Below are positions 24,286 through 41,290 of a stretch of DNA of 64,000 bases, in pieces. The DNA lies in IMG/VR virus record IMGVR_UViG_3300021963_000033; one strand, 5' to 3'. The first letter of the stretch is position 1. Each line of letters begins with the position of its first letter. The notes below the pieces were generated by a model that worked only from the letters and a program-made list of their open reading frames with translations, made no database searches and was not told where the DNA came from. A program made the position numbers and the translations under genes. Source of the DNA: a virus (lineage: Duplodnaviria; Heunggongvirae; Uroviricota; Caudoviricetes).

Positions 24286-24954
24286 TTAATTAGTTCCTGG
24301 ATCTGTTTTGCCGAGTTGATCGAAAGCCCACTGTCTTTCCCTACAGTGATAGCACTTACTGCATCTACCATATTTTTGCTGCGTGCAAGTGTGCGATATC
24401 TCGAGCAATCTTTCTGTGCCATGCATAAAATGCAAATCAATCGTGTGCGATTTCATCAATTCATTGAACGGCATGCCCAAATATTCCGGAAAGGGATTTG
24501 TATCTACTCTATACGGTTTTTCGTTTGGAGAAAGTACCAACTCGGATGTTTCTCTATTGTCTGCCATGTAAACAAACAGTTTACCATCCGCTGCATAGTC
24601 TTTGAATACTGCACGAACGCTCTCTTGAATTTGCTGCGAGTGGTGAAGTTCTTGGACGTTCTCTGCACCAAAAATCGTAGGCGCGGGTAAGTTTATACTC
24701 AGCATCTCGTTTATGGCGGCGACTATACCAGGAGAGTGAACCTCTGCGCCATCTGTCTTGGGCACCGTAAAGATATACTTAATTTCATCGATACTGCGCC
24801 CCTTCTTAATCAATTCGGAACAAATCATATACAATAGAATAGAACTGTCTGCTCCACTACTCAACATAATAGCAAGATCACGGTTTTCCGGTAGAGGCAA
24901 AACAAATGAGCGTCTATCTTCTGGTGGTCCACAGGTAAATGAAGTACTTGTCAT
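24286..24954 (-). CDS. QueC-like PP-loop ATPase (7-cyano-7-deazaguanine synthase family)
   Basis: SGADS PP-loop after a beta-strand (LAIMLSSGADSS). C-terminal C-x7-C-x2-C-x2-C (CTQQKYGRCSKCYHC) matches the QueC zinc site. Length 222 aa; AGGAG SD. Confidence 0.6.
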   Translation of the reverse strand: MTSTSFTCGPPEDRRSFVLPLPENRDLAIMLSSGADSSILLYMICSELIKKGRSIDEIKYIFTVPKTDGAEVHSPGIVAAINEMLSINLPAPTIFGAENVQELHHSQQIQESVRAVFKDYAADGKLFVYMADNRETSELVLSPNEKPYRVDTNPFPEYLGMPFNELMKSHTIDLHFMHGTERLLEISHTCTQQKYGRCSKCYHCRERQWAFDQLGKTDPGTN

Positions 24955-25772: not shown

Positions 25773-25784
25773 TATGTTTTTTCC

Positions 25785-28267: not shown

Positions 28268-28902
28268 TATTTTTCATTCCATTTAATTGATTCCAGAGTC
28301 TGCAAAAATGACTCTCGATGTGCCTCATTCCAAATAAGATAACCAATCCACTGTTTTACGCCGCGAATCTTAATTGGACCCGCAGATTTCATTGTCGGAT
28401 GAATTCTTACTCCAGGTTTGGCATAATGTTTACCGTTTTCCATAAAATATCCAGGATGTTTTTTTGGATCATTTATTTCAATGTATCTAGGATATAATCT
28501 AGAATTGTATTCATTTACTGAAGAGAATGCGCCAAACCGTCCAGTTTCCATACTTATATCTATGGCCAAATCATGAATAGCACCCTGCACTCGAGGCAGG
28601 GTGACTCCAGGGACTGTATAACTGCGAGAACTTAAATGTGTCATTTTTTCATCTATATCAGAAACTGAGAAACCACTGCCACATAAAATTCTATCATCTT
28701 TCTTATGTATTATATATCCATTACCACTACCATTATACCGTTTTTCTACATAAAGTAAATATAAAAACGAGGATTTATTTTCTTCCCATCCAACAGGACT
28801 CATGTTTTCTGCTCCTGGACGCGGATCTCCCAGAGATGCTTCACAAAATGGAAGAATCTTTTCTATGGGATAACTACTATCAATTTTCTCTAAATCAATC
28901 AT
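28267..28902 (-). CDS. hypothetical protein (possible acyltransferase-like)
   Basis: ORF translationally coupled into the operon; no firm motif. Confidence 0.45.
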   Translation of the reverse strand: MIDLEKIDSSYPIEKILPFCEASLGDPRPGAENMSPVGWEENKSSFLYLLYVEKRYNGSGNGYIIHKKDDRILCGSGFSVSDIDEKMTHLSSRSYTVPGVTLPRVQGAIHDLAIDISMETGRFGAFSSVNEYNSRLYPRYIEINDPKKHPGYFMENGKHYAKPGVRIHPTMKSAGPIKIRGVKQWIGYLIWNEAHRESFLQTLESIKWNEK

Positions 28903-29540
28903 AATATATTAAGACGAATTCGTGCTTCTTCTAGATCTTCATTAAACAAATCATCATAATTTTCTGCGAGTAAGAACTTAGCATTTGTCCCTCGCAGATA
29001 TGCATGTTTGACCATGGATAGATTTTTGTAAGAAAGACCATATTTTAATGAACCAAGCAAACATATCGCAAACCAACCAAGCGATTTTGTCTGTGCAAAT
29101 GAAAATGCTGCGAGACAAATTTCACCTGTATCATTTGCAGGATATCCTGTCAACGTGTGCCAAGTGTCATGTGTGTCGCGATACCTACGTGCCATCCAAT
29201 TATATGGATGTTTTGCTTCGATCCATTTGCTGTTGTTTGATTTTCTTCTGCTGAGTTTCAGTAAGATTTCTTGGTTCGGAAATAGTTTGTGACATTCTCT
29301 ACCAACAGACCCTTCTGGTCTCTCAGAAAGTGTCGGGAAATACTGCGAAATTTCCTCGGAGTTATACACAACCTCGCCGCCTGTTTTAGTCTTCATTAAC
29401 TGATCAAGACTCCAGCGCAATGATGGCGGATTTAATGCATGAAGGATCTCGAAAATGAAAATTGTGTTTGCAGGATTTTTGCGCAGTTTCTTAAATGCTT
29501 TGTATGCACGAAGATAGTCAATTTTGTATTCTAGTCTCAT
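28899..29540 (-). CDS. Coq4-like (HDxxH-x10-GE) family protein
   Basis: HDTWHTLTGYPANDTGE matches the Coq4 metal-binding signature. Confidence 0.35.
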   Translation of the reverse strand: MRLEYKIDYLRAYKAFKKLRKNPANTIFIFEILHALNPPSLRWSLDQLMKTKTGGEVVYNSEEISQYFPTLSERPEGSVGRECHKLFPNQEILLKLSRRKSNNSKWIEAKHPYNWMARRYRDTHDTWHTLTGYPANDTGEICLAAFSFAQTKSLGWFAICLLGSLKYGLSYKNLSMVKHAYLRGTNAKFLLAENYDDLFNEDLEEARIRLNIL

Positions 29541-30276
29541 CTACAATAACCTTCAATTCGCGAAGCACTTTTTTAATTTCAATCGGATTACTCAGGAAGG
29601 CATAGAAGTTTCCACTATCTTCCAAGTCGTAGACATATAGATGCTCATTAGTAAGAACATAGTTTATATCTGGATTATAGTATAATTTATATGATGCTAC
29701 GACATCCTCTGAACCGAGAAATGTCTCGTCGAAATCGAAGGAATTAATAACTTTCTTGGAATACAGTAACATTCTATTTTGCAGAAGATTTGCCGCCAAA
29801 AATTTACCGAGTTCGATTAGACGCAATCCATGCGAACCTTTTACGTTAGCGAACTTGTAGATATCTGCGCTGTTGAAGAACGCATTACCTGTGGTATTAG
29901 TTCCATTATAAGTCATCGCTCCATCGATCAAACCAATAACATCAACATCTGGATTTTCGTTCACAATTTTATCAAGTTTGATCAGTGAATCGGGAGCAAG
30001 ATAGTCATCTGCATCAACTTGCATGTAATAGTCATGCGAACGAGTTCGAAAAATCTCTAGAACAGAATTCTTCCCCTTCGCAGGTGTCCCGTTAGATTCA
30101 GTTACCAGAAACTCTAAATTGTATTCCTCGGCAACAGATCTCGCTTGCTCTACAAATGAAAAATCGAGAGTGTTGCATACCACAACCACATCACTGGTTT
30201 GAGGCAGAACACTCTCGATACAACGTTTTAATTTTTCAACATTCCTTGAAGTAAGGACTGCGACCAACAGATTCAT
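29518..30276 (-). CDS. family 2 glycosyltransferase (GT-A fold)
   Basis: N-terminal nucleotide-sugar binding (VVVVCNTLD) and a QVDADDY DxD motif. Confidence 0.6.
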   Translation of the reverse strand: MNLLVAVLTSRNVEKLKRCIESVLPQTSDVVVVCNTLDFSFVEQARSVAEEYNLEFLVTESNGTPAKGKNSVLEIFRTRSHDYYMQVDADDYLAPDSLIKLDKIVNENPDVDVIGLIDGAMTYNGTNTTGNAFFNSADIYKFANVKGSHGLRLIELGKFLAANLLQNRMLLYSKKVINSFDFDETFLGSEDVVASYKLYYNPDINYVLTNEHLYVYDLEDSGNFYAFLSNPIEIKKVLRELKVIVDETRIQN

Positions 30277-30628: not shown

Positions 30629-30703
30629 TGGTAGCCCCGAGCGGTTTCGATCCGCCTTCTCGTCAGTGAAAGTGACGTGTCCTAGCCAGTAGACGACGGG
30701 GCC
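30629..30703 (-). tRNA. tRNA-Glu(TTC)
   Basis: Cloverleaf with anticodon loop CTTTCAC, a GGTTCGAAACC-type T-arm and an encoded CCA. Confidence 0.75.
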
Positions 30704-30708
30704 ATAAA

Positions 30709-30945
30709 TTATAGACCAATAGCAGTGCGATAAGTCTCAAGAATCATATCTTCTTCTTGACGAACATGCGCTTCCTTCTTGCGGAGACGAATAATCTGGC
30801 GAGTTGCCTTAACATCGTAACCTTCGCTCTTTACATCAGCATACGCTTGTTTGCGATCTAACTTCTTATCGTCGATTTCTTTCTCGATATTTTCGATACG
30901 CTCAACCAACAAACGATACTTATCAATTGCAATAACATCAGTCAT
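30709..30945 (-). CDS. hypothetical coiled-coil protein
   Basis: ORF with an AAAGGAAG SD, directly downstream of tRNA-Cys. Confidence 0.5.
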   Translation of the reverse strand: MTDVIAIDKYRLLVERIENIEKEIDDKKLDRKQAYADVKSEGYDVKATRQIIRLRKKEAHVRQEEDMILETYRTAIGL

Positions 30946-30963
30946 AATATACTTCCTTTAGAA

Positions 30964-31041
30964 TGGAGGCACGAGTGGGATTCGAACCCACGGTTTTCAG
31001 GTTTTGCAGACCTGTGCGATGGACCACTCCGCCATCGTGCC
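30964..31041 (-). tRNA. tRNA-Cys(GCA)
   Basis: Anticodon loop CTGCAAA, T-arm GGTTCGAATCC, CCA encoded. Confidence 0.75.
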
Positions 31042-31046
31042 AAAAT

Positions 31047-31117
31047 TGGTACCAGCAGTAGGTAACGCTCCTACCAAACCAACCTTATGAGAGTCGGTCG
31101 GACACTTATCCTGCTGG
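31047..31117 (-). tRNA. atypical tRNA-like element (CAT anticodon loop)
   Basis: 7-9 bp acceptor helix plus encoded CCA, packed between two tRNAs. Loop CTCATAA on a 5-bp stem. D-region reduced and T-loop AGCGTTA non-canonical. Confidence 0.35.
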
Positions 31118-31119
31118 TA

Positions 31120-31195
31120 TGGTGCGAGTGACAGGGTTCGAACCTGTGACCTAACGATTATCGGTCGTTTGCTCTACCAACTGAGCTACACTCGC
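31120..31195 (-). tRNA. tRNA-Ile(GAT)
   Basis: Anticodon loop CCGATAA; canonical D- and T-arms. Confidence 0.75.
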
Positions 31196-31200
31196 AAATA

Positions 31201-31282
31201 TGGTGGGCACGGTGGGACTCGAACCCACAAAGTTTCCTAACGAATTTTAAGTCCGTCGCGTTTACCATTTCGCCACGTGCCC
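31201..31282 (-). tRNA. tRNA-Leu(TAA)
   Basis: Class II tRNA with a long variable arm; loop CTTAAAA. Confidence 0.7.
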
Positions 31283-31283
31283 A

Positions 31284-31359
31284 TGGGGTGATCGACGGGT
31301 ATCGAGCCCGCAACTCCGGATTCACAATCCAGCATGTATCCATTAACACCTCAACCACC
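31284..31359 (-). tRNA. tRNA-His(GTG)
   Basis: Loop TTGTGAA, an extra 5' G(-1) opposite C73, and a 3' end CACCCCA as in bacterial tRNA-His. Confidence 0.65.
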
Positions 31360-31375
31360 ATAAACTAATGCAGTG

Positions 31376-31420
31376 CCCATTACTGACGCATTACGCACCC
31401 TCGTCATGGGTTTTTGTTTT
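31376..31420 (+). terminator. plus-strand intrinsic-terminator-like hairpin
   Basis: CCCAT(TAC)TGACG...CGTCATGGG followed by TTTTTGTTTT on the plus strand. Confidence 0.35.
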
Positions 31421-31471
31421 GCTACGCTGGAAGATACCCTATCTCCCTTGGGCCACTTGACACTGCAACTT

Positions 31472-31558
31472 TGGCGGAAGGTGTGGGAGTCGAACCCACT
31501 CAACCATTTCTGGTTGACGCATTAGCAGTGCGTTGCATTACCGTCCTGCCCACCTTCC
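31472..31558 (-). tRNA. tRNA-Ser(GCT)
   Basis: Class II; loop CTGCTAA. Confidence 0.7.
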
Positions 31559-31564
31559 GTTATA

Positions 31565-32362
31565 TTACTTAACGTTTACGATACCCTTGAAGTCGTAAGG
31601 AACGATAATGGTAGAAACCTTACCTTCCTTAACTGCTTCCGCGATTGTCACAAGAGCAGTCGCTTCCATGTATTTAGTAGCACCAGCGTTGGCATTAAGA
31701 GCAGCAATACGTTCTGCTTCCAACTTCGCGGTACGAACCTCTACCAACTTCTGCTTCTCAGCATTTTGTGCCTGAACAAGTTGGTTAGCAGACGCTACGA
31801 TACTCGCAGCAGGTTTTACCTGACGAACAAGAACCTGCGAGATCGAGATAGAACCATCGAGTTTCTCAGAGGCAAGTTGCGCTACAATCTCTTGGCGAAC
31901 CAATTGCTCAATCTCAGCACGATTGTCTGCCATCTTCAATGACTCGTAACGACGAGCAACCTTGTAAGCAGCATTACGACCCAACTGACGAATGTAATTA
32001 TACATCAACAGTGTATCGCCTTCTTCGGTTTCAGCGTGGAAACCACGATTCTTTTCTACATAGATTTCAGCAGCACTAGTTGGATTGATCGAGTAGATTA
32101 CTGACATATCAAAGTCAGCAACAGTCGAGTTATCAGCAGCAAGTGGTGTCAAATCAGTTACATCAACCTGCACGTCCTTGGTAGGAAACGTCAAAACATC
32201 ACCGAAGATGGTTTGGTTCAGAGATCCTGGTTGTAGTTCGGTGGTTTCAATCTGCTTGTAAGCATCACGACGAACACCAACTTCACCAGTTTCAATACGA
32301 GTACAGGCAGCAGTGGTTGCCATCAGACCAGCGAGAAGAACGACTTTAGTAACACTTTTCAT
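31565..32362 (-). CDS. SPFH/band-7-like lipoprotein
   Basis: Start reassigned to MKSVTKVVLLAGLMATTAAC (lipobox) with an AAGGAA SD. The C-terminal Ala/Glu-rich helical region resembles SPFH proteins. Confidence 0.45.
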   Translation of the reverse strand: MKSVTKVVLLAGLMATTAACTRIETGEVGVRRDAYKQIETTELQPGSLNQTIFGDVLTFPTKDVQVDVTDLTPLAADNSTVADFDMSVIYSINPTSAAEIYVEKNRGFHAETEEGDTLLMYNYIRQLGRNAAYKVARRYESLKMADNRAEIEQLVRQEIVAQLASEKLDGSISISQVLVRQVKPAASIVASANQLVQAQNAEKQKLVEVRTAKLEAERIAALNANAGATKYMEATALVTIAEAVKEGKVSTIIVPYDFKGIVNVK

Positions 32363-32376
32363 AATAACTTTATTCC

Positions 32377-32553
32377 TTAGAAAATCAAAACGATTCCAGT
32401 AATAACGACCATCGTTAATACAGTACACACTATACTATAAGCAAGCAATTTAGTCAAGCTTATTTTTTCAGACTTATTCATTTTTCTGAAAGTATCAATG
32501 CCAACGATGAATCCAAACAGGATGACCATGAAGGCAACAATCATTTTACTCAT
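32377..32553 (-). CDS. small membrane protein (58 aa)
   Basis: AAGGAA SD; its stop overlaps the downstream RBS. Absent from the ORF track. Confidence 0.4.
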   Translation of the reverse strand: MSKMIVAFMVILFGFIVGIDTFRKMNKSEKISLTKLLAYSIVCTVLTMVVITGIVLIF

Positions 32554-32582
32554 AACAAATTCCTTAAAAATTGGTTAAAAAT

Positions 32583-32657
32583 TGGTGGATCCACTGGGAC
32601 TTGAACCCAGAATATGCGATTAAAAGTCGCGTGTGATACCTATTTCACCATGGATCC
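32583..32657 (-). tRNA. tRNA-Lys(TTT)
   Basis: Loop CTTTTAA; perfect acceptor GGATCCA/TGGATCC. Its 5' 18 nt are shared with the HEG stop region. Confidence 0.7.
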
Positions 32658-33218
32658 TGATAGATGATTCATAATACCATCTACAAACGTTTTTTTGTCA
32701 TCTAGTTTTTGATAATCAGACCATTTGACTCTAATTATCTCCCAACCAAGAGATTCAAGATATTCGTTTCTGCGAATATCACTTTTTACAACTCTTGGGT
32801 CTAGATGGTGTTGATCTCCATCAATCTCTAAATCTATCTTAGCAGCAACAAATGCAAAATCTAACTGATATGGTCCAATTTGATATTGTTCGGCATATAC
32901 CAGATTATTTGAATCGAGAACTGCCTTCCAATATTCTTCAGCATATGACCTACCCTTGGAATAATGGTTAAGTTTATACGGCACCATGTGAGGATTTTCA
33001 CGAAGAAATTTAATACGACTTTCGCTGATTTTTTTCTTCGTTTCTTCTGTCATGGGTGGTCGTTTTTTATTCGCATCACTGCGTTTTTTTCTCGACTCTT
33101 CCGTTATTTCTGGGTTGGGTAAACCAAGTTCTTTCGCTTTGGTATACTGGTTTCTTGCTGTTTTGCCTCGTTTTGCTGCCATGGCAGCATACCACTTTTC
33201 GCTTTTAGGTTTACTCAT
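32640..33218 (-). CDS. homing endonuclease-like protein (DUF559/Vsr-like PD-(D/E)xK nuclease domain plus NUMOD-like N-terminus)
   Basis: C-terminal QLDFAF...IDLEIDGDQHH...R..E..GW.IIR is the DUF559 core. AAGGAG SD. The last 5 codons are encoded by the tRNA-Lys 5' end. Confidence 0.5.
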   Translation of the reverse strand: MSKPKSEKWYAAMAAKRGKTARNQYTKAKELGLPNPEITEESRKKRSDANKKRPPMTEETKKKISESRIKFLRENPHMVPYKLNHYSKGRSYAEEYWKAVLDSNNLVYAEQYQIGPYQLDFAFVAAKIDLEIDGDQHHLDPRVVKSDIRRNEYLESLGWEIIRVKWSDYQKLDDKKTFVDGIMNHLSGSMVK

Positions 33219-33260
33219 ACTAGTCTCCTTATACTAGTATTTATATTTTTAGAGCATTTA

Positions 33261-33298
33261 ACTTAACCTTGTTGCTCTACCTACTGAGCTAATCGTCC
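33261..33298 (-). pseudogene. tRNA 5'-half fragment (acceptor plus D-arm plus partial anticodon arm)
   Basis: GGACGATTAGCTCAGTAGGTAGAGCAACAAGG has a canonical D-arm but no 3' half. It abuts the HEG leader. Confidence 0.5.
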
Positions 33299-33303
33299 GA
33301 AAC

Positions 33304-33379
33304 TGGTAGACCCTGTTGGATTCGAACCAACGACCTGCGGATTAAGAGTCCGATGCTCTACCGACTGAGCTAAGGGTCC
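33304..33379 (-). tRNA. tRNA-Lys(CTT)
   Basis: Loop CTCTTAA; canonical arms. Confidence 0.7.
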
Positions 33380-33385
33380 ATAAAA

Positions 33386-33685
33386 TTATGGATGCTTCCA
33401 AACAACCTTACGTTGTGATTTTGCAATCCGCGTTTGTTCTTCGCTATTCTTATAGAAGTCAAACCAACTATCATACTGTTTCATCGCAGCTTCTTTAGCA
33501 AGTTCCAAGGTTGGAAACGTGTTCGAAGGATACCCACGATTTGCAGATGGATAGTGCTTTATAAGGTTCCAATTATCCATGAACGGCAAGAAACGATAGG
33601 TGCAGATCGCATACTCTGCGACAAACCCATCCTGCTCATTACCACGAACACGTACTTTCAAACCGTAAGGAACTTTCTCAAACAT
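33386..33685 (-). CDS. hypothetical protein
   Basis: Start reassigned to ATG 33685 with a GGAG SD. The ORF-track N-terminus overlaps tRNA-Met. Confidence 0.45.
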   Translation of the reverse strand: MFEKVPYGLKVRVRGNEQDGFVAEYAICTYRFLPFMDNWNLIKHYPSANRGYPSNTFPTLELAKEAAMKQYDSWFDFYKNSEEQTRIAKSQRKVVWKHP

Positions 33686-33709
33686 AATATATTCTCCATA
33701 ACAAAAAAC

Positions 33710-33785
33710 TGGTAGACGAGGAGGGACTCGAACCCCCAACCAAACCGTTATGAGCGGTCGGCTCTAACCATTGAGCTACTCGTCT
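33710..33785 (-). tRNA. tRNA-Met(CAT) (elongator or Ile2-type)
   Basis: Loop CTCATAA; canonical arms. Confidence 0.7.
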
Positions 33786-33790
33786 AAACT

Positions 33791-33967
33791 TTAATACATC
33801 GGTTCTTCCGGATCGACGTCTTCAACTGAGTAGGTAGGATACCATTCAGGAGTTTCACGTTCCAAGAATTTGATCATCTCTTTCGCCTTTTCTTCGGTCG
33901 AGTAGATACCAACCATGATCGAGTGATCTCCACCAGGAGATTCATTGTTCACAACATAAACTTGCAT
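33791..33967 (-). CDS. small protein, paralog pair member 1
   Basis: AAAGGAAGG SD. Shares VGIYSTEEKAK with the neighbouring LGVYASEDEAR. Confidence 0.45.
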   Translation of the reverse strand: MQVYVVNNESPGGDHSIMVGIYSTEEKAKEMIKFLERETPEWYPTYSVEDVDPEEPMY

Positions 33968-33987
33968 AATCAACCTTCCTTTAAACT

Positions 33988-34188
33988 TTAACCGATGTAG
34001 ATCCGATACTCCTCGGAATCTACAGGAGCACCGATCGTCCGACGTTCGATGTAGTACGCATCGAGGAACCGATCACCGTCACGAGTATACACACCATGGG
34101 CATTCCGTGCTTCATCTTCCGACGCATACACGCCAAGGAGCACAGAACCTGCCATATCGAACTCACCTAACAACGCAAAAACTTCCAT
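33988..34188 (-). CDS. small protein, paralog pair member 2
   Basis: AAAGGAAA SD, downstream of promoter 34216-34244. Confidence 0.45.
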   Translation of the reverse strand: MEVFALLGEFDMAGSVLLGVYASEDEARNAHGVYTRDGDRFLDAYYIERRTIGAPVDSEEYRIYIG

Positions 34189-34215
34189 AACGATTTCCTT
34201 TCAAACTATAATATC

Positions 34216-34244
34216 ACTATACCTCGAAATGTAGAAATTGTCAA
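34216..34244 (-). promoter_or_regulatory. early promoter, family member
   Basis: GGGCTTGACA-17-TATAGT followed by GATATTATAGTTTGAAAGGAAA. Confidence 0.6.
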
Positions 34245-34246
34245 GC

Positions 34247-34285
34247 CCTAAAATAAAAAAAGTGCCAAGTTTTTTTCCTTGACAC
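34247..34285 (-). terminator. bidirectional rho-independent terminator
   Basis: GTGCCAAG-TTTTTTT-CCTTGACAC hairpin flanked by A- and T-tracts, between the tRNA sub-array and the next promoter. Confidence 0.55.
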
Positions 34286-34294
34286 TTTTTATTA

Positions 34295-34384
<90 letters not shown>

Positions 34385-34389
34385 TAATC

Positions 34390-34465
34390 TGGATGCCCTA
34401 CCACGACTCGAACGTGGAACCTTCTGAATCAAAATCAGACGTGCTGCCAATTGCACCATAGGGCA
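34390..34465 (-). tRNA. tRNA-Gln(TTG)
   Basis: Loop TTTTGAT; T-arm CCACGTTCGAGTCGTGG. Confidence 0.7.
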
Positions 34466-34466
34466 C

Positions 34467-34541
34467 TGGTACAGGATGACGGGATTGAACCGCCGACCGC
34501 CTCGGTGTAAACGAGATGCTCTACCGCTGAGCTAATCCTGC
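34467..34541 (-). tRNA. tRNA-Val(TAC)
   Basis: Loop TTTACAC; canonical D-arm GCTCAGCGGTAGAGC. Confidence 0.7.
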
Positions 34542-34544
34542 AAA

Positions 34545-34994
34545 TTAATGTCTTACCACGTGATCAGCAGCATGTGTTGCCGCGAAAGACTCTGGTTTGA
34601 TTTTAGCATCAAGACCCGTAGTTCCCTTAACATACCCCAATGCTTCTTTAACAGCAATGCTGGATTTATGCCTAGGATCGGGATTGATGTCAAGATGGAT
34701 TTCTAGATGTCGACTACCAACCACATCAACAATTGCTGTTGCTGCTTCAATGGCAAATCCTGCTTCGGTGATCAGACGTTGCCGTAAGTTACCGAAGTCG
34801 CGCATCTCTACGTTTCTAGAGAATATTTTACCACCATGTTTTGAGTCCATGTGAAGAATAATAACAGTGGAATACTTAGCATACCACTCACCACTACGCT
34901 TCTTGAATCTTATTGAATCGGCACCGATATAAACAGATGACGTTTCACTTGAATTTAGAATTGCTTCTCTTGCTTCATCATACATAAAAATCAT
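34545..34994 (-). CDS. hypothetical protein
   Basis: ORF immediately downstream of the tRNAs; start uncertain. Confidence 0.4.
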   Translation of the reverse strand: MIFMYDEAREAILNSSETSSVYIGADSIRFKKRSGEWYAKYSTVIILHMDSKHGGKIFSRNVEMRDFGNLRQRLITEAGFAIEAATAIVDVVGSRHLEIHLDINPDPRHKSSIAVKEALGYVKGTTGLDAKIKPESFAATHAADHVVRH

Positions 34995-35071
34995 CCATTT
35001 ATAAATAAGTTTGTGTGGTTCACGATGTTGACGCATCCAACCACTCTAACGCTTTCAAGGAGCATCAGCAC

Positions 35072-35569
35072 ATGATTATATATCTCTACGTCAAACAACA
35101 TTCTATTACTGGACTAAAATATTTCGGCAAAACCAAACGAAATCCATTTACATATAATGGATCTGGTACTAGATGGTCAAATCACATAAAAAAACATGGT
35201 AGTAAATTCATCACTACCATAGAAATATGGGGATTCGACGACCAATCATGCTGCACAGACTTTGCCTTAAGATTTTCAGAAGAAAATGATATAGTAAAAT
35301 CCGCCGATTGGGCAAATCTAAAACCAGAAGATGCCCTTGATGGCGGTAAAACCATGGAGTGGACAGAAGAAAAACGATTAGCACAAAGCAACCGTTTGAA
35401 GGGTAGAATTTGGTCTGTCGAGAGAAACATCAAAATGGCAAATTCTAAAAGAGGTAAAAAAAGACAAGTTCTAGAATGCCCCCATTGTGGTAAAATAGGC
35501 GGGGACAATAATATGTCACGTTGGCACTTCGATAATTGTAAATGGCGAAGGTGCTCAGAATCGAACTGA
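35072..35569 (+). CDS. GIY-YIG homing endonuclease with NUMOD3 motif
   Basis: IIYLYVKQHSITGLKYFGKT is GIY-YIG. A NUMOD3-like EEKRLAQSNRLKG follows. AAGGAG SD. Only clear plus-strand gene in the array. Confidence 0.65.
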   Translation: MIIYLYVKQHSITGLKYFGKTKRNPFTYNGSGTRWSNHIKKHGSKFITTIEIWGFDDQSCCTDFALRFSEENDIVKSADWANLKPEDALDGGKTMEWTEEKRLAQSNRLKGRIWSVERNIKMANSKRGKKRQVLECPHCGKIGGDNNMSRWHFDNCKWRRCSESN

Positions 35570-35607
35570 GTTCTCAAGGTTTTGGAGACCTGCGGATTAC
35601 CATCTTC
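35543..35607 (-). tRNA. atypical/truncated tRNA-like element (CCA anticodon loop, Trp-like)
   Basis: Canonical T-arm CTCAGTTCGATTCTGAG, acceptor 3' strand plus CCA, loop CTCCAAA, but only about 10 nt in place of a D-arm. Its T-arm overlaps the GIY-YIG stop. Confidence 0.35.
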
Positions 35608-35630
35608 CCCCACCGACGCAAACTTAGAAA

Positions 35631-35706
35631 TGGTCTAGGTGACTGGACTCGAACCAACAATCCCCTCGCCCCAAACGAGGTGCCTTACCACTTAGGCCAC
35701 ACCTAG
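35631..35706 (-). tRNA. tRNA-Pro(TGG)
   Basis: Loop TTTGGGG with G37. Confidence 0.7.
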
Positions 35707-35716
35707 ATATCTTTAA

Positions 35717-35911
35717 TTACTTTGGTTGCTCATTCTCACCAAGAGCAGGTTCTGCTGCAGGTTCTGCTGCTTCTTCTGCTGCATTTGCTGTAGCAAGTGC
35801 TTCATCTGCTGCTGGACCAGCGGCTTCTGCAACTGTTGGTTCTTCTGCAGCAGGTGAACATGCTGCTGTAAGTGCAATAACTGCTGCTGCCATAAAAGTC
35901 TTGATGTTCAT
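35717..35911 (-). CDS. small Ala/Glu/Pro-rich lipoprotein
   Basis: Signal peptide with lipobox LTAAC; AAAGGAAG SD. Confidence 0.45.
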   Translation of the reverse strand: MNIKTFMAAAVIALTAACSPAAEEPTVAEAAGPAADEALATANAAEEAAEPAAEPALGENEQPK

Positions 35912-35932
35912 ATTTACTTCCTTTGTTAAAAA

Positions 35933-36014
35933 TGGTACCCAAGATAGGATTCGAACCTACATCTTACTTCCAGTTACCTTTGGCTCCGTTCGTAGCGGAG
36001 AGGGATACTTGGGC
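35933..36014 (-). tRNA. atypical tRNA-like element (ACG anticodon loop, Arg-like)
   Basis: 7-bp acceptor plus CCA, T-arm GTAGGTTCGAATCCTAT, perfect 5-bp stem with loop CTACGAA. Only 5 nt of D-region and a 23-nt variable region. Confidence 0.4.
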
Positions 36015-36015
36015 G

Positions 36016-36090
36016 TGGAGCGGCATGTGAGAATCGAACTCACCCCTTACGGCTTGGAAGGCCGACGCACCACCACTATGCTAATGCCGC
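36016..36090 (-). tRNA. tRNA-Gly(TCC)
   Basis: Loop CTTCCAA; T-arm GTGAGTTCGATTCTCAC. Confidence 0.7.
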
Positions 36091-36208
36091 ACAAAACTTA
36101 TTTATACCTAAAACGGAACAGTCCCCGCTGCTCTGTATTACTGTTTGCTCAATGGGGTTTCACAGGGTCGACCCTGCCTCTATTCTATGCAAACAAACCG
36201 CAGTATAT

Positions 36209-36283
36209 TGGCGACCTTGAGGGATTATGATACCCCGACCTTCGCAGTGACAGTGCGACGCTCTTCCTCTGAGCTACAAGGCC
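36209..36283 (-). tRNA. tRNA-Asp(GTC)
   Basis: Loop CTGTCAC and a canonical D-arm. The T-loop ATCATAA is unusual. Confidence 0.6.
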
Positions 36284-36289
36284 TTAAAC

Positions 36290-36374
36290 TGGTGGGAAGG
36301 TGAGGTATCGATCCTCCCCCGAAAACGGATGAGATTTACAGTCTCACTGCCAGAGCCACTGACTTTACCTTCCC
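36290..36374 (-). tRNA. tRNA-Tyr(GTA)
   Basis: Class II with a long variable arm; loop CTGTAAA; acceptor GGGAAGG/CCTTCCC. Confidence 0.65.
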
Positions 36375-36419
36375 GAAAATTCCCGATACTTCTGAAAAGT
36401 AAAAGTATTGGGAATTAAT

Positions 36420-36495
36420 TGGTGCTCCCGAACGGATTTGAACCGCTGACACGTGGTTCTTCAAACCACTGCTCTACCAACTGAGCTACAGGAGC
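36420..36495 (-). tRNA. tRNA-Phe(GAA)
   Basis: Loop TTGAAGA; canonical arms. Confidence 0.75.
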
Positions 36496-36594
36496 ATAAT
36501 AATATACACATTGTTGGACCCGTCTGTTCCAACTTTTCCCTGCTCGTAGCGGGTTGCGAGTTCCCCTCCTTGCGGTCGGGGCAATGTGTATTAG

Positions 36595-36679
36595 TGGTAC
36601 GGATAAGAGGACTCGAACCTCCACGTCTTTCGACATCGGTACCTAAAACCGAGGCGTCTACCAATTCCGCCATATCCGC
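36595..36679 (-). tRNA. tRNA-Leu(TAG)
   Basis: Class II; loop TTTAGGT. Confidence 0.7.
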
Positions 36680-36806
36680 AAAAAGAGCGACCACCTACAG
36701 TGTGCCTTGATCGATTACGTCCGGACGCTTCGATCTTCCCAGATAAAGAATACAGTTGCAACTATATCTTTACCCTTTCGCGGGTTCAGCAGAGGTGGTC
36801 TATATT

Positions 36807-36882
36807 TGGTGGAGAATAACGGGATCGAACCGTTCACCTTCTGCGTGCAAGGCAGACGCTCTACCGAATGAGCTAATTCCCC
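36807..36882 (-). tRNA. tRNA-Ala(TGC)
   Basis: Loop CTTGCAC; canonical arms. Confidence 0.7.
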
Positions 36883-38038
36883 AACGAAAAAAACTTATTA
36901 GAAGAATGCACTGGGTTCCAGAACCTCCCGTATTAGTGACGGGCAGTGCACTCATCTAATAAGTCTTTGTAAACCTTGAGATTACAGGTTTAATTGAGTG
37001 CCTTTGGACCGTACCGACTTCCTTGCGAGAAGTGTTAATCCTTTATCCACTAAAGTCCTTGCGGATTCTCTAGTATCACTCAGTGCTGCCTTTTTTGAGG
37101 TCTGGCGTTTGACCTATCATGCTACGCTATTCGTCCATCATTCTCCCGTCTGCCTTGCGAGCAGTTCGGTTCCGCTAAGAACCTACGTCTTCACTTCGAA
37201 CAACCACTTCATCCTTGCGAGAATCCGTGGACCCAATTCACTTTCGTGTCAGGTATTAAGCACCTTTCACGTAGCACTGGAGCAGTCTTTCGCTTTTATA
37301 TACAAACCAGGAATTGAACCTAGATCGACAGTTTAAGAGACTGTTGCTTTACCTTTAAGCAATTTGCGAACCTACCAAGAAGTGCTGCTCCAGCAGATCC
37401 ATACCTTGTTAGATACAGAATACCACACTCCTCATGTCTTTCGTCTTGCGGACTAATCAACCATGCTTCAAGTCTCCCCTCATCGGTTTAACTTTTGCAT
37501 TGCCACCTTGCCTTTTCACGCGAATGATCAGACTCAATGACTATCCGTTAGTATTCAGCACTCATAGGTTTGGTTCGATACAGTTAGACCACCACAGTCT
37601 ATTAGAACTCACCGACCGGCTCTGTTCGTATCCTTTCGGACTTATATCACCTACTTACTGCCTACTGCCATTCAACTGACAGGGGATGCTTTCGTCACAG
37701 GTTTTACCCAAATGCAACGAGTCATCCCTAACTCGGACTTGTATAGATAGACCATCACTGGCGCAGTTACGTAGGAGTCCCTGCTTTGGCCACATTACTG
37801 TGGTTATCTTAACGACGCTATACCGCCATTCCTATTTTTCTACTATACCCTAATACTAGGGAAAAGTAAATAGATTTTTGAAATTATTTTCAAAAAACTT
37901 TTAATGAACATAATGGCAACTGAGGTGTCGACACGCTACTGTCGGTAATTTCGCTCTTTACGTTCCTATCATAGAGCGATGAGAACGCATTCTCAACCTC
38001 CCCCAATCACTTGGTCGCCACAGGAACTTCCATTATAT
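36883..38038 (-). ncRNA. ORF-free structured region inside the tRNA array; candidate large ncRNA or degenerate tRNA-like elements
   Basis: No credible ORF on either strand. At least five copies of CCTTGCG(A/G) (37022, 37047, 37153, 37213, 37443) plus two more at 36556-36580. tRNA-like 3' domain at 37300-37344 and tRNA-like 5' domain at 37700-37745. Strand assumed from the neighbours. Confidence 0.3.
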
Positions 38039-38758
38039 TCAAACTCTATTAAGTCTATCTCTACAGATATCTAATGCTTTATCGTTTATGTCACAACCTA
38101 TAAACCTTCTTTTCAAGATTTTGCTAGCAACTAAAGTTGTGCCTGAACCCATAAACATATCCAATACAATACCATCATTTGGACAAGACGAATCTATTAT
38201 AGGATATAATAACGCTAATGGTTTTTGCGTAGAATAACCTACTCTTTCTGTTTTATCATTTTGCCCCAGCATAGGAATATTCCAAACATCGTCAAGGACT
38301 TTACCAGCTTCATTATAATATTTTTCTTTAGCATACCCTCTCGGAGCAGTAGAAGAATAAGGTTGGCGTATGTATTTAGAATCTACGTTGAAGAAATAAT
38401 TATCTGACAAGGAGTATCTAAAAATTGTATCGTGCCTTTTACCAAAGTCTTTCTTTTTCCTTGGAGCAGAGTTATAATGCCATATAATTTCATTTCTAAA
38501 ATTATCTTTACCAAAAATCTCATCCATGTTAAGTTTCATGCTGTGTGATATATTATAATCGCAATGTATGTATATTAACCCCGTTGGTTTCAATACACGT
38601 TTGCACTCTAACAAAATTGGAGTAAAGTCTATGTCTATAGAATCGTCATAGTCCTTGAATTTGTTTCCCGTGCCGAACGGAACGTCTGAATAGATTAGAT
38701 CAATACTATAACTTTCTATATTAGAAAGAAAGGATAAAGCATCACTATGGTATATCAC
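38039..38758 (-). CDS. beta-class DNA N6-adenine/N4-cytosine methyltransferase
   Basis: Motif IV variant DLIYSDVPF (DPPY-like) near the N-terminus and motif I MFMGSGTT near the C-terminus, as in N6_N4_Mtase enzymes. Confidence 0.65.
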   Translation of the reverse strand: MIYHSDALSFLSNIESYSIDLIYSDVPFGTGNKFKDYDDSIDIDFTPILLECKRVLKPTGLIYIHCDYNISHSMKLNMDEIFGKDNFRNEIIWHYNSAPRKKKDFGKRHDTIFRYSLSDNYFFNVDSKYIRQPYSSTAPRGYAKEKYYNEAGKVLDDVWNIPMLGQNDKTERVGYSTQKPLALLYPIIDSSCPNDGIVLDMFMGSGTTLVASKILKRRFIGCDINDKALDICRDRLNRV

Positions 38759-38787
38759 ATTTTACCTTTCTTCCATTACATTCAAAC

Positions 38788-38866
38788 TGGTTGCAGAGGT
38801 TGGATTTGAACCAACGATTTCCGGCTTATGAGACCAGCGAGGACAACCTGACTCCTCTACTCCGCG
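38788..38866 (-). tRNA. tRNA-Met(CAT), initiator-like
   Basis: Loop CTCATAA with a C1xA72 mismatch at the acceptor end, typical of bacterial initiator tRNA. The D-loop is long. Confidence 0.55.
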
Positions 38867-38872
38867 ATAAAT

Positions 38873-38947
38873 TGGCTCCCTAAGATGGATTCGAACCACC
38901 GACCAAAAGATTAACAGTCTTCTGCGCTACCGCTGCGCCATTAGGGA
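38873..38947 (-). tRNA. tRNA-Asn(GTT)
   Basis: Loop CTGTTAA; canonical arms. Confidence 0.75.
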
Positions 38948-39242
38948 AAATGGGTATCTCACGTCTCGACACTCACATCAAACATTCCCGACAGACTCCA
39001 TACACCATACGGTATGCGAGTAGTTTGACTATAAACTTGCCGTTTTGTTTTCAACGCATGCCAACGAACTAAATCGCCTTTATAACGTTGGTTCAGCAGA
39101 CGGTACTGCTTATTTCTATTCTATACACCTTATCGGTTAACCCCATTCATGATTGCGGTAAGGAATCCGATATTCGCCAGCGTTCCCCGTCTGTTAGTCT
39201 GGCATAGGTCTCTCCAGTAGGTTCTAGAATACTGGATAATAA

Positions 39243-39318
39243 TGGTGCCCCCACGACGACTCGAACGCCGGACCCCCTGCTTACAAGGCAGGTGCTCTAC
39301 CAACTGAGCTATAAGGGC
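39243..39318 (-). tRNA. tRNA-Thr(TGT)
   Basis: Loop CTTGTAA; canonical D-arm. Confidence 0.7.
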
Positions 39319-39722
39319 AGAGATTGATTTTCTAGCAACCAACCTTTGTTGGCGCCTCTTCCTTTGCCTTTGTTTCTACCTTTAAACGAAGGTGTTTGAC
39401 TGTGACAATTTGGACATATCAATCGTAAATTTTCTGGAATATTGTTATATGGATCGCCATCAGTATGATCAACTTCAAGATTGATAGGCATACCCAACCA
39501 ACTATCTATTCCACAAACTGAACAGTTATCACCAAATTCGCGTTTAAGATTTGTTTTTAGGCAACCCTTTCCGATTGTCCCTTCTCCACGCTTCCACGCT
39601 TCATACTTCAATATGCTCTGGTGAGTTTTCTGGCAAGAATTACTGCAGTATTTTCCTGCAGTATTTTGCTTCTCTTCGACCTTACCACAATGAAGGCATT
39701 CGGTGATATTTTTAATTCCCAT
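39309..39722 (-). CDS. HNH endonuclease with N-terminal zinc ribbons
   Basis: LEVDHTDGDPYNNIPENLRLICPNCHS is the HNH motif. The C-terminus overlaps the tRNA-Thr 5' end by about 10 nt. Confidence 0.6.
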   Translation of the reverse strand: MGIKNITECLHCGKVEEKQNTAGKYCSNSCQKTHQSILKYEAWKRGEGTIGKGCLKTNLKREFGDNCSVCGIDSWLGMPINLEVDHTDGDPYNNIPENLRLICPNCHSQTPSFKGRNKGKGRGANKGWLLENQSLPL

Positions 39723-39780
39723 CTTATTTATTCCTGCTAGGTAGACCTGCTTTTATTTATAAGATAGGTATTTTTAGAAA

Positions 39781-39960
39781 CTTATTTAATCTACCCTGCC
39801 CATGAGCGAATTTCGGAGTCGGTTGCAGCCGTCCTAAGCCATTGCTAAGGTTAATTAAGGACTGGTGCGATGGCCCACCCAATCCGTAGTCTATACGTCT
39901 ATAGTACGCTCTCCCCTTAGCAGGGTAGATTAAATAAGTCTCGAAAGACTTATTTTATTC
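39781..39960 (+). ncRNA. candidate structured small RNA or MITE-like element
   Basis: Perfect 19-bp inverted repeat (CTTATTTAATCTACCCTGC / GCAGGGTAGATTAAATAAG) encloses 120 nt with internal hairpins. Followed by a plus-strand terminator hairpin AATAAGTCTCGAAAGACTTATT plus TTTTATTC. Confidence 0.35.
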
Positions 39961-40786: not shown

Positions 40787-41290
40787 TTAATCTCGCGGAC
40801 GATATGGGTCATATTTCATACCCCACAACCACCCTCCTGGCAACGTGAAAGTCAGAGGGTCAACAAGGTGGCATTTACCATTCGGTTCAACGCACCACTT
40901 GCGACGCCTCATACTTGCCTTGATTGCCATGAGTCGGCGAGTTTCCCAAGTATGCCTTCTAGCATACATCGGATTACCATCCCTGCGCCTAGTTCCCCGC
41001 ATGGTTCGACTTATCGATGCTTTATGCTCTGGTGTTAAACCACCCCAACAGGGATTCTTTTCACCAGTTAGTGCTTCTGAAATCTTTTTGCGAGTCTCAG
41101 GACTATGTCCTGCAGATTTCTTTCGGGTAACTTTATCAACAATCGTCAAACCTTTTCCGAGGACTTCTGCTTTATCTCGGAGGATTTCTATCTTGCTGTT
41201 TTGTAGCAAGAGTTCTCTTGGTTTCGGAACCTTGTTTGGATCATTGACAATCCATAGTTCTTTCTTATGTTGAAATAGAAAGAACCTCAT
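40787..41290 (-). CDS. NUMOD3-repeat homing-endonuclease-like DNA-binding protein
   Basis: Three NUMOD3-like repeats (SPETRKKISEALTG, TPEHKASISRTMRG, TWETRRLMAIKASM). No catalytic motif recognised. AAAGGAACGG SD. Confidence 0.45.
   Translation of the reverse strand: MRFFLFQHKKELWIVNDPNKVPKPRELLLQNSKIEILRDKAEVLGKGLTIVDKVTRKKSAGHSPETRKKISEALTGEKNPCWGGLTPEHKASISRTMRGTRRRDGNPMYARRHTWETRRLMAIKASMRRRKWCVEPNGKCHLVDPLTFTLPGGWLWGMKYDPYRPRD

Follow-up and report, generated by a model that had tools for sequence, protein, structure and literature searches.

A probable mobile cassette of a Vsr-like endonuclease gene and a recoded tRNA-Lys(UUU) in a phage tRNA array

Introduction

Homing endonucleases in phage tRNA gene clusters are already known, among them SegB of T4, a GIY-YIG enzyme (PMC2330249, PMC13096335). 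Here we describe a different arrangement in a stretch of 64,000 nucleotides (nt) from a tailed phage (Caudoviricetes; IMG/VR record IMGVR_UViG_3300021963_000033), the whole of which is referred to below as the window. On its minus strand, at 32583-33298, the gene of a Vsr-like endonuclease stands within a tRNA gene array, between the 5′ half of one tRNA-Lys(UUU) gene and a complete, recoded copy of another, and we propose that these parts together form a mobile cassette. SegB resembles the cassette in that it is encoded by a free-standing gene in a phage tRNA array, cuts the tRNA gene DNA of related phages and co-converts neighboring tRNAs, as we propose for the cassette; its homologs are statistically associated with tRNAs (PMC2330249, PMC13096335). 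SegB differs from the cassette enzyme in belonging to another nuclease family and in recognizing a conserved T-arm motif with no isotype preference (PMC13096335). Neither a half-tRNA scar nor a dedicated recoded tRNA fused to the open reading frame (ORF) has been described for SegB, whereas the cassette is tied to one isoacceptor and has its junction in the anticodon.

The Vsr-like, or EDxHD, family of homing endonucleases has been described (PMC2677866, PMC3239194), and its member I-Bth0305I is a homodimer that cleaves the center of a pseudopalindromic site (PMC3239194). I-Bth0305I and the marine 'fractured genes' share with the cassette the catalytic fold, an N-terminal DNA-binding region, a hairpin in the 5′ leader and a gene broken in two (PMC3239194, PMC2677866). 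The known Vsr-like members lie in group I introns or between the halves of split inteins, so that repair of the host gene takes place in the RNA or the protein. The cassette is unlike them in that its apparent target is a tRNA gene, nothing is spliced, and a complete replacement tRNA would restore function.

Parts of this design also occur elsewhere. I-Ssp6803I, the endonuclease of a group I intron in a cyanobacterial tRNA-fMet gene, likewise belongs to the PD-(D/E)xK superfamily, has a tRNA gene as its target and is inserted in the anticodon loop; unlike the cassette enzyme, it is intron-encoded and not Vsr-like, and there is no intron at the cassette. In fungal mitochondrial hybrid genes, such as atp6 of Allomyces, a GIY-YIG ORF is accompanied by a foreign C-terminal segment. 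There too a mobile ORF brings a partial replacement copy of its target, and the displaced native part stays behind as a pseudogene remnant, but the target is a protein gene whose 3′ end is replaced in frame, whereas the cassette would replace a whole tRNA, of which the 5′ half remains.

In the literature that we searched, which left most subscription journals outside, we found no description of a Vsr-like/DUF559 clade tied to tRNA isoacceptors, nor of an anticodon junction, a recurrent half-tRNA scar or a recoded replacement tRNA fused to the end of an ORF. The Vsr-like cassette type is apparently both widespread and undescribed.

Architecture of the tRNA-Lys cassette

Window positions 32583-33298 are best explained as a discrete 716-bp mobile cassette, composed in order of a half-tRNA remnant, a leader with TATAAATA and a hairpin at the ribosome-binding site (RBS), the gene of the Vsr-like endonuclease and a complete recoded tRNA-Lys(UUU). 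tRNA genes were called over the window with ARAGORN and the Rfam covariance models, and their 3′ ends were read from the sequence. The features of the cassette and its upstream neighbor are listed here with the basis of each in parentheses (AF2, AlphaFold2; L numbers designate the individual loci and contigs compared).

33304..33379, minus strand: intact tRNA-Lys(CUU), upstream neighbor of the cassette (ARAGORN, Rfam)
33265..33298, minus strand: 5′ half of a tRNA-Lys(UUU), cut in the anticodon loop (match to the starts of tRNA-Lys(UUU) in L001-L008)
33250..33264, minus strand: conserved leader motif AAGTTAAATGCTCTA (kept in about 24 distinct cassettes)
33238..33245, minus strand: TATAAATA, late-promoter consensus of the Vsr-like gene ((T)ATAAATA kept in homologous cassettes)
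33217..33240, minus strand: 8-bp hairpin ATACTAGT / ACTAGTAT (read from the sequence)
32640..33218, minus strand: free-standing homing endonuclease of 192 amino acids (Pfam, PDB profile, AF2 model)
32583..32657, minus strand: recoded complete tRNA-Lys(UUU) (ARAGORN; Rfam, 65 bits)

The remnant at 33265-33298 holds the 5′ strand of the acceptor stem, the D arm, the 5′ strand of the anticodon stem and the start of the loop. Its first 26 nt occur as an exact match in eight IMG/VR contigs (L001-L008), where they always begin a functional tRNA-Lys(UUU); aligned, the sequences stay identical as far as about nt 29, and homology stops in the anticodon stem-loop. A preliminary description of this DNA had noticed a tRNA 5′-half fragment in the endonuclease leader, and these matches show it to be genuine and identify it as tRNA-Lys(UUU). 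The acceptor strand of the remnant, GGACGAT, has no ATCGTCC partner and no matching 3′ half anywhere in the window. Because this partner strand is absent, no intron model matches, and the downstream tRNA is a separate allele, the remnant is the scar of a resident tRNA-Lys(UUU) gene and not an exon.

The leader contains TGCTCTA, an inverted repeat (7 bp) of TAGAGCA in the D arm of the remnant. The hairpin at 33217-33240 overlaps the promoter motif and encloses the Shine-Dalgarno sequence AAGGAG together with the first two bases of the ATG, and equivalent RBS hairpins are present in homologous loci. This layout of hairpin and promoter matches that of free-standing endonuclease genes in phages and metagenomes and of T4 (PMC2677866). 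The motif TATAAATA, the T4-type late-promoter consensus, occurs seven times in the window against 2.4 expected, and three of the seven copies lie directly upstream of the start codons of the three endonuclease genes of the array. By analogy with T4, these copies would act as late promoters. The Rfam motif cow-rumen-4 was considered as the identity of the leader and set aside: the resemblance over 33218-33280 is below threshold (30 bits against a cut-off of 48.5), no match was reported in 16 related loci, and it is kept as a lead only.

At its other end the cassette is fused to the tRNA. The last five codons and the stop of the endonuclease gene (GGA TCC ATG GTG AAA TAG) are at the same time the first 18 nt of tRNA-Lys(UUU), in agreement with the earlier reading that the 5′ part of this tRNA encodes the end of the gene. 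The ORF is preceded by about 46 nt of non-coding sequence and followed by none. RNase P processing of the tRNA-Lys would, we infer, leave the endonuclease message without a stop codon. The cassette tRNA has a non-canonical D arm (GTGA..TCAC) and acceptor strands that match each other (GGATCCA / TGGATCC); it and the remnant are different alleles. An exact search of IMG/VR with the recoded tRNA-Lys returned no match.

The endonuclease is predicted to be Vsr-like

The protein encoded at 32640-33218 consists of a basic N-terminal region and a C-terminal Vsr-like/DUF559 nuclease domain, which Pfam recognizes as DUF559 and MTES_1575 (E values of 3e-10 and 1e-11). A profile of the homolog family matches the catalytic domain of I-Bth0305I (3r3p, E 3.5e-6) and a DUF559 structure (3hrl, E 4.2e-6) in the PDB. 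The AF2 model likewise matches 3r3p (E 1.6e-4, template modeling (TM) score 0.77, root mean square deviation 3.0 Å), as well as 3hrl and Vsr itself (1vsr, 1cw0). In 17 homologs D120, E131, D133, H137 and D140 are invariant, in agreement with the acidic and histidine pattern (E-x-D ... H ... D) of the catalytic residues in this family. The N-terminal region is helical, basic and of lower confidence in the model; it has no Pfam NUMOD match in the window protein, and the homolog P0027 carries PF07460 and that of coliphage Mizar is annotated NUMOD3. Sequence profile and predicted fold together place the protein among the Vsr-like/EDxHD homing endonucleases of the I-Bth0305I kind, and the DUF559/Vsr-like label given to the gene at the outset stands. 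Its homologs form more than 250 clusters, mostly annotated as 'very-short-patch-repair endonuclease'.

The cassette recurs in different phage arrays

Six homologs in IMG/VR, at 57-77% identity, stand in arrays whose upstream neighbors differ (Leu, Tyr, Val, Ile, Gln) and have a common order: first a tRNA 5′ half, which stops near position 33-35, then the leader AAGTnAAATGCTCTA, (T)ATAAATA, a hairpin covering the Shine-Dalgarno sequence and the ATG, then the ORF, and last a complete tRNA-Lys(UUU), which begins at or within the stop codon of the endonuclease gene. A metagenome survey comprised 80 homologous loci, 31 of them at an identity of at least 55%. In all of the latter (31/31), tRNA-Lys(UUU) starts between −38 and +1 nt from the stop, and in most of them the half-tRNA is present together with the leader motif and (T)ATAAATA. 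About two dozen distinct cassettes in different arrays share one junction, at tRNA position 33-35 or so and followed by the same leader.

The remoter homologs share mainly the nuclease domain and adjoin, on the upstream side, tRNAs for His, Trp, Tyr, Cys, Thr, Phe, Ser, Lys(CUU) and Arg(UCU); in the Arg(UCU) case (L095) a tRNA-Arg 5′ half lies upstream. In GenBank, homologs of 31-34% identity occur in T-even-like coliphages, including Mizar, F2 and HY126. In these phages the ORF shares 15 nt with the annotated tRNA-Arg and is preceded by a similar leader; the gene of Mizar (L149, PV714129.1), of the NUMOD3+DUF559 type, is annotated 'hypothetical protein'. RB69 (L181) presents the allele without the gene: its tRNA-Arg(UCU) has a canonical D arm, whereas the tRNA-Arg of Mizar is recoded. 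The pattern spans lake, marine and other metagenomic phage contigs as well as cultured T-even-like coliphages. A search of bacterial genomes for the Lys-type family found only remote, partial relatives in metagenome-assembled genomes, so that the family appears to be phage-borne.

By eye, most of 30 distinct tRNA-Lys genes adjacent to the endonuclease have a non-canonical D arm, and about a dozen have a long variable arm. The remnants retain canonical D arms, with D-stem pairing in 95% of remnant cells. The recoded D arms would fit replacement tRNAs that have escaped recognition by the endonuclease. The long variable arms, which resemble those of type II tRNAs (82-85 nt in total) and are unusual for tRNA-Lys, are found in L011-L013, L073-L079, L084, L090-L093 and others.

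Insertion site and mobility

The clearest comparison is that of L009, which has the gene, with L004, L003 and L001, which do not and are syntenic with it through Leu(UAA), Lys(UUU), Lys(CUU), Gln, Pro, Thr and Gly. L009 is 100% identical to the gene-free arrays up to position 35 of tRNA-Lys(UUU), and homology resumes at the next tRNA; judged by eye, this tRNA is about 75% identical and the flank beyond nearly identical, roughly 95%. This places the left junction in the anticodon, at position 35 of tRNA-Lys(UUU). The break at this position and the return of identity only at the next tRNA indicate that in L009 the tRNA of the cassette has taken the place of the 3′ half of Lys(UUU), the spacer and Lys(CUU).

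Other pairs speak for movement of the cassette as a unit. L068 and L069 are 100% identical over about 700 nt of leader, endonuclease gene and tRNA-Lys; their remnants differ at 5 of 36 positions (86% identical), identity in the upstream flanks is 60-92%, and further downstream the two contigs cannot be aligned. The element in this pair is thus more alike than its flanks. Replacement of the tRNA allele together with the element is seen in the comparisons of L009, Mizar and L182. The cassettes of L077 and L079 are 91% identical and their remnants unrelated (44%), and window positions 32582-33297 are 95% identical to L054 in a different flanking context. Such discordance between remnant and cassette is what repeated homing into different tRNA-Lys alleles, with the 5′ half of the recipient kept, would predict. 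Presence or absence at a fixed site was found for L009 against L004, L003 and L001, for Mizar against RB69, for the window against L054 in the case of the GIY-YIG-like gene, and for the sister contig L182 against the window in the case of a further GIY-YIG gene. In addition, each of the three endonuclease genes is preceded by its own TATAAATA, and a hairpin over the Shine-Dalgarno sequence can be read; by T4 analogy, these would act as a late promoter and mask the RBS. For the DUF559/Vsr-like gene, the proposal in the preliminary description of an endonuclease-driven insertion that leaves tRNA remnants is strongly supported by the recurrence, the empty array and the identical cassettes. What that description had missed is that this is a family-wide trait, that a recoded downstream allele travels with the endonuclease, and that the array holds a GOLLD RNA.

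Proposed mechanism and alternatives

We propose that during co-infection the endonuclease would cut the standard tRNA-Lys(UUU) gene DNA of a cassette-free phage, at or near the center of the pseudo-palindromic anticodon arm, and that the break would be repaired from the cassette-bearing genome. A cut in the anticodon arm is suggested because I-Bth0305I cuts the center of its pseudopalindrome, the anticodon is the center of the arm, and the junction lies there. The left crossover would fall in conserved D-arm sequence, so that the 5′ half of the recipient gene survives as a dead remnant, and the right crossover at or beyond the 3′ end of the cassette tRNA. The recoded tRNA would restore lysine decoding and would itself be no substrate, which would make the new genome immune. 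The promoter and RBS hairpin would confine synthesis of the endonuclease to late transcripts, as in T4. What the sequences show directly is the anatomy of the cassette, its conservation, the fold, the left junction and the identical cassettes in diverged flanks; the site of cleavage, the immunity given by the recoded tRNA, the route of recombination and the time of expression are our inference. Taken as a whole, this explanation, a mobile Vsr-like cassette that cuts tRNA-Lys(UUU) and brings a recoded tRNA, has in our estimate a probability of about 0.7.

Several observations weigh against it. Only the comparison of L009 with L004 defines the right junction, and there Lys(CUU) was replaced as well, which goes beyond a simple insertion. 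Because the anticodon-stem sequences of the remnants vary widely, the determinants of recognition are unclear. L072 and Mizar have the leader and no half-tRNA, which shows that a cassette can exist without the remnant. Late-promoter use is read from the consensus, and no protein of the window was recognized as a late sigma factor. An exact IMG/VR search with the junction between Lys(CUU) and the remnant gave no match, and no cassette-free relative of the window lineage was found; exact-protein look-ups for this lineage returned only contigs of the same lineage and, in one case, nothing. Finally, most cassettes keep the inverted repeat between remnant and leader: 86% of cells pair, and sliding the partner lowers this to 20-49%, so the remnant is perhaps retained for a function.

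This last point leads to an alternative that is compatible with the proposed homing and does not exclude it, namely that the half-tRNA is a selected part of the cassette and not only a scar. With the leader it would form the hairpin TAGAGCA-N16-TGCTCTA beside the promoter, and it could signal the processing or insulation of RNA, be an operator through which the endonuclease represses itself, or provide the left homology arm for homing. Besides the pairing of the repeat, a few double changes that keep the pairing (L083, L085, L087), the 95% D-stem pairing of the remnants and the weak likeness of the leader to the two-hairpin motif cow-rumen-4 (30 bits) point in this direction. The covariation is, however, not significant, since 37-89 of 500 shuffles attain values as high, the 16 related loci show no cow-rumen-4 match, and L072 and Mizar do without the half-tRNA. 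Remnants also differ between identical cassettes, as expected of DNA derived from the recipient, and we regard a selected role as possible but doubtful. It is unlikely, in turn, that the endonuclease genes are kept mainly for the benefit of the phage, by excluding competitors or by spreading counter-defense tRNA genes, and are not purely selfish. Host anticodon nucleases are known to target tRNA-Lys(UUU), the very tRNA that the cassette always carries in heavily recoded copies. SegB, moreover, amplifies tRNA-Tyr and defeats Septu (PMC13096335). Yet no tandem amplification is seen in the window, the recoding is more simply explained as escape from the endonuclease itself, and polymorphism of presence and absence among near-identical strains is typical of selfish elements.

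Two further readings we consider very improbable. The fragment might have arisen by ordinary recombination or decay among similar tRNA genes, its nearness to the endonuclease being a coincidence. Chimeras formed at microhomologies away from the junction do exist in L054-L063 (a Met/Lys remnant and Cys/Glu tRNAs), but chance would hardly produce the same junction and leader in about two dozen distinct cassettes of different arrays, or an isotype link in 31/31 loci. Less credible still is that the fragment and the downstream tRNA are two exons of a tRNA-Lys whose anticodon loop holds a group I or other intron encoding the endonuclease. The fragment does end in the anticodon loop, the classic site of group I introns in bacterial tRNAs, and one such intron encodes the PD-(D/E)xK endonuclease I-Ssp6803I (mentioned in PMC2677866). 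This reading nevertheless founders on a downstream tRNA that is complete, with its own matching acceptor strands GGATCCA and TGGATCC and a score of 65 bits, and on the lack of an ATCGTCC partner for GGACGAT in the window. The non-coding sequence, about 46 nt before the ORF and none after it, points the same way. We have rejected a group I intron or split tRNA: neither a search at the 13 kb scale nor a permissive search of 761 nt matched any Rfam intron model, and the window holds no complementary 3′ half. The preliminary description was accordingly right to see no group I intron here.

The plus-strand and HNH endonuclease genes

The other two endonuclease genes of the array are best explained as ordinary intergenic insertions of the same general kind, beside tRNA-Trp and tRNA-Thr. 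The features around the plus-strand gene are as follows.

35543..35617, minus strand: intact tRNA-Trp(CCA) (Rfam, 35.5 bits, cut-off 29, full model 1-71)
35072..35569, plus strand: GIY-YIG-like endonuclease of 165 amino acids with a C-terminal CPHC...H..NC zinc finger (PHROG 655, 314; AF2)
34986..35538, plus strand: inserted segment of about 553 nt between tRNA-Trp and the RNaseH-like gene (empty site in L054/L058)
34545..34985, minus strand: RNaseH-like (PF04308) gene (Pfam; comparison with L054)

The ORF at 35072-35569 matches the PHROG 'homing endonuclease' families 655 and 314 and has no match in Pfam, NCBIfam or the PDB sequences. It reads IYLY...KYFGKT...Y.GSG, and the top PDB fold match of its AF2 model (predicted local distance difference test score 89.5) is the catalytic domain of I-TevI (probability 0.96, TM score 0.69, E 0.24). 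Homologs carry NUMOD3 (PF07460), the C-terminal CPHC...H..NC finger is conserved, and the 165-residue protein is complete relative to its homologs. Of the original GIY-YIG/NUMOD3 label, motifs, PHROG families, fold and the NUMOD3 of the homologs speak in favor, and sequence-profile support for GIY-YIG is lacking; 'GIY-YIG-like' is a reasonable, not proven, description based on motif and model.

The end of this ORF does overlap a tRNA on the opposite strand, as had been noted: its last eight codons and stop (27 nt) are read from the antisense of tRNA-Trp, and the resulting eight-residue tail is not conserved. The tRNA itself had been taken for a truncated Trp-like tRNA (35543-35607), one of the fragments ascribed to events that duplicated or decapitated tRNA genes, and neither part of that reading holds. 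Rfam and the orthologs in L001, L003 and L004 show a full-length tRNA-Trp(CCA) at 35543-35617. Its acceptor stem, GTCGGTG / CACCTTC-G-CCA, has two mismatches (U2-U71 and C3-U70), and ARAGORN missed this copy. The copies in L001, L003 and L004, which ARAGORN calls, have the same ends and mismatches, and that of L003 is almost the same as the window gene over its whole length. In L009 this 3′ strand stands opposite GTTGGTG, and the L007 version is fully paired. At the empty site in L054 and L058, tRNA-Trp-CCA is followed by an 18-nt spacer and the ATG of the RNaseH-like gene. In the window the inserted segment, which carries TATAAATA (35000-35007), AAGGAG and most of the plus-strand ORF, replaces this spacer only, so that the gene is a clean intergenic insertion that decapitated no tRNA. 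The same comparison places the start of the RNaseH-like gene at the ATG at 34985, not at 35036.

The HNH gene lies at the far end of the array, with the following features.

39754-39761, minus strand: TATAAATA upstream of the HNH gene (promoter match)
39309..39722, minus strand: gene of an HNH endonuclease of 137 amino acids (Pfam, PHROG)
39243..39318, minus strand: intact tRNA-Thr(UGU) (ARAGORN, Rfam)

Its product matches Pfam HNH_3 (26.2 bits, cut-off 24.8) and PHROG HNH families (E values down to 4e-23). The stop lies 10 nt inside the 5′ end of tRNA-Thr, which confirms the overlap reported for this gene, and no tRNA-Thr half was found upstream of it. In IMG/VR the HNH gene has one relative, which is identical, and only contigs of the same lineage were found, with no clear HNH-less relative. 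Homology with L054 begins exactly at the 5′ end of tRNA-Thr, over 48 nt only, an edge that would be compatible with an HNH insertion. The idea that the tRNA fragments reflect insertion or recombination events driven by endonucleases therefore stands for tRNA-Lys and fails for tRNA-Trp; at tRNA-Thr the overlap is there and a remnant was not found.

Two further elements flank this gene pair. Between early-type promoters and the HNH gene, 39785-39942 (minus strand) is a structured non-coding element with a 24-bp closing stem (minimum free energy −70.5 kcal/mol against −43.3 for shuffles, z −7.45) and no Rfam match even at E 10. Directly after the CCA end of the tRNA, at 39118-39242 (minus strand), lies an element of about 125 nt that also follows a tRNA-Lys in L003, L004 and L009. 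Judged by eye, phages with tRNAs 15-25% apart have almost the same copy of it, and a recent transfer is possible; the element shows no unusual folding (z −0.2), one compensatory pair and no Rfam match. Outside the region, at 40787-41290 (minus strand), is a fourth endonuclease-like gene of 167 amino acids with two NUMOD3 motifs and a weak match to TIGR01453, 'group I intron endonuclease', in whose product no catalytic domain was recognized.

The tRNA array and the GOLLD RNA

The region as a whole is best explained as the tRNA gene array of a lytic phage bearing T4-type late-promoter consensus sequences, colonized by free-standing homing endonuclease genes, each with its own TATAAATA.

30629..39318, minus strand: phage tRNA array, 23 tRNA genes with encoded CCA (ARAGORN, Rfam, 3′ ends)
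36290..36374, minus strand: tRNA-Tyr(GUA) with long variable arm and encoded CCA, probable (Rfam tRNA-Sec 33.3 bits, CCA end, position in L182)
36973..37433, minus strand: conserved part of a GOLLD RNA (RF02032; Rfam, 196.8 bits, cut-off 150, full model 1-416)

ARAGORN called 22 minus-strand tRNAs between 30629 and 39318; Rfam confirmed them and supplied two more. One of these is the tRNA-Trp already described (35546-35617 in the Rfam match, anticodon CCA, 35.5 bits, cut-off 29). The other is a Tyr-like match with anticodon GTA at 36294-36374, which reaches 33.3 bits on the tRNA-Sec model, below its cut-off. In L182 the same position holds a tRNA-Tyr called by ARAGORN, to which the window sequence is only loosely alike, and 36290-36374 is probably a tRNA-Tyr(GUA). 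The 3′ ends show an encoded N-CCA in 23 of 23 real tRNA genes. The preliminary count of about 23 minus-strand tRNAs with encoded CCA is thus upheld, as is the presence of three endonuclease genes among them, with the correction that one counted tRNA, 'Lys-ctt' at 37298-37370, has no CCA and sits inside the GOLLD RNA. The window array contains two Lys isoacceptors plus the dead Lys half and no tRNA-Arg, of which the related arrays L001-L008 have two (UCU and ACG).

A near-identity search of the whole region against GenBank phages gave matches to individual tRNAs only, and the only matches of a large window protein were short, N-terminal and to cyanophages. Downstream of the array, about 24000-30276 (minus strand), lie genes for glycosyltransferases, a Coq4-like protein and radical SAM/SPASM proteins, labels that derive from homologous genes of L054-L057. 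In L085 the endonuclease-linked tRNA-Lys is directly followed by a tmRNA gene at 3127-3500 (85 bits) and a Pistol ribozyme at 3620-3687 (53.8 bits, cut-off 34.5).

GOLLD RNAs sit in phage tRNA islands and have tRNA-like inserts in their linker (PMC12286853, PMC6582537). The window GOLLD conforms to this, with phage tRNA genes around it and, at 37298-37370, a tRNA-like insert in the linker that ARAGORN calls as tRNA-Lys(ctt) and that lacks CCA; nothing unusual was detected, and it is an additional member from a freshwater-type phage lineage. The 605 nt upstream of the conserved part contain no ORF and fold with a z of −3.6, with a promoter-like site at 37968-37996, and GOLLD probably extends upstream to about 37960. 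In L001-L004, which have no endonuclease gene, it is a manA RNA (RF01745) that adjoins the tRNA arrays; the window has GOLLD instead.

Close relatives document further flux in this array. The sister contig L182 is 99.88% identical to window 34392-36105 and has at 172-888 an extra GIY-YIG/NUMOD3 gene of 238 amino acids between tRNA-Gln and tRNA-Ser(UGA), for which window 34385-34389 is the empty site. A long hairpin encloses the TATAAATA copy that belongs to the extra gene, whose ORF continues for 53 nt within a tRNA-Ser gene of another allele (75% identity). Past the extra gene, L182 and the window go from 99.9% identity to about 81%. L054-L063, with an endonuclease 97% identical to that of the window, are without the block of Met, methyltransferase and GOLLD, which in L054 is missing between tRNA-Asn and tRNA-Ala. 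They also contain chimeras at short shared sequences, with a remnant that starts as tRNA-Met and continues as the Lys remnant, and a tRNA with a tRNA-Cys 5′ part and a tRNA-Glu 3′ part. In some of these scaffolds, N-gaps are flanked by repeated segments, which suggests population heterogeneity. Nuclease genes are reported to tend to mark boundaries of exchange between phages (PMC10448857), and the flux seen among the window, L182 and L054-L063 matches this tendency.

Discussion

The most far-reaching form of our proposal is a large undescribed Vsr-like clade specialized on tRNA genes, in which each subfamily cuts the anticodon arm of one isoacceptor and installs a recoded tRNA fused to its own stop, and which is a main engine of array mosaicism, a source of odd phage tRNAs and possibly anti-defense. 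We put this forward tentatively and would sooner expect parts of it to fail. If it is true, cassettes would be where phage tRNAs of odd form come from, for example a tRNA-Lys whose D arm is non-standard or whose variable arm is long. Their recoded tRNAs might then resist anticodon nucleases that target tRNA-Lys(UUU), and a selfish element would double as a mobile anti-defense tRNA module.

For those who annotate phage genomes, tRNA halves and overlaps of ORFs with tRNAs are to be expected in this setting and are not errors. The cassette family would offer natural enzymes that recognize tRNA gene DNA, and Mizar or F2, with the gene, and RB69, without it, make a tractable experimental pair. Phage tRNA arrays are now regarded as modules of counter-defense and codon supply, and how they are assembled and reshuffled is poorly understood. 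The cassette represents a concrete mechanism of reshuffling, in which a resident tRNA gene would be destroyed and a rewritten copy substituted for it. It would explain the sharp breaks of identity at tRNA genes, the origin of half-tRNA pseudogenes and the structurally aberrant tRNAs of phages.

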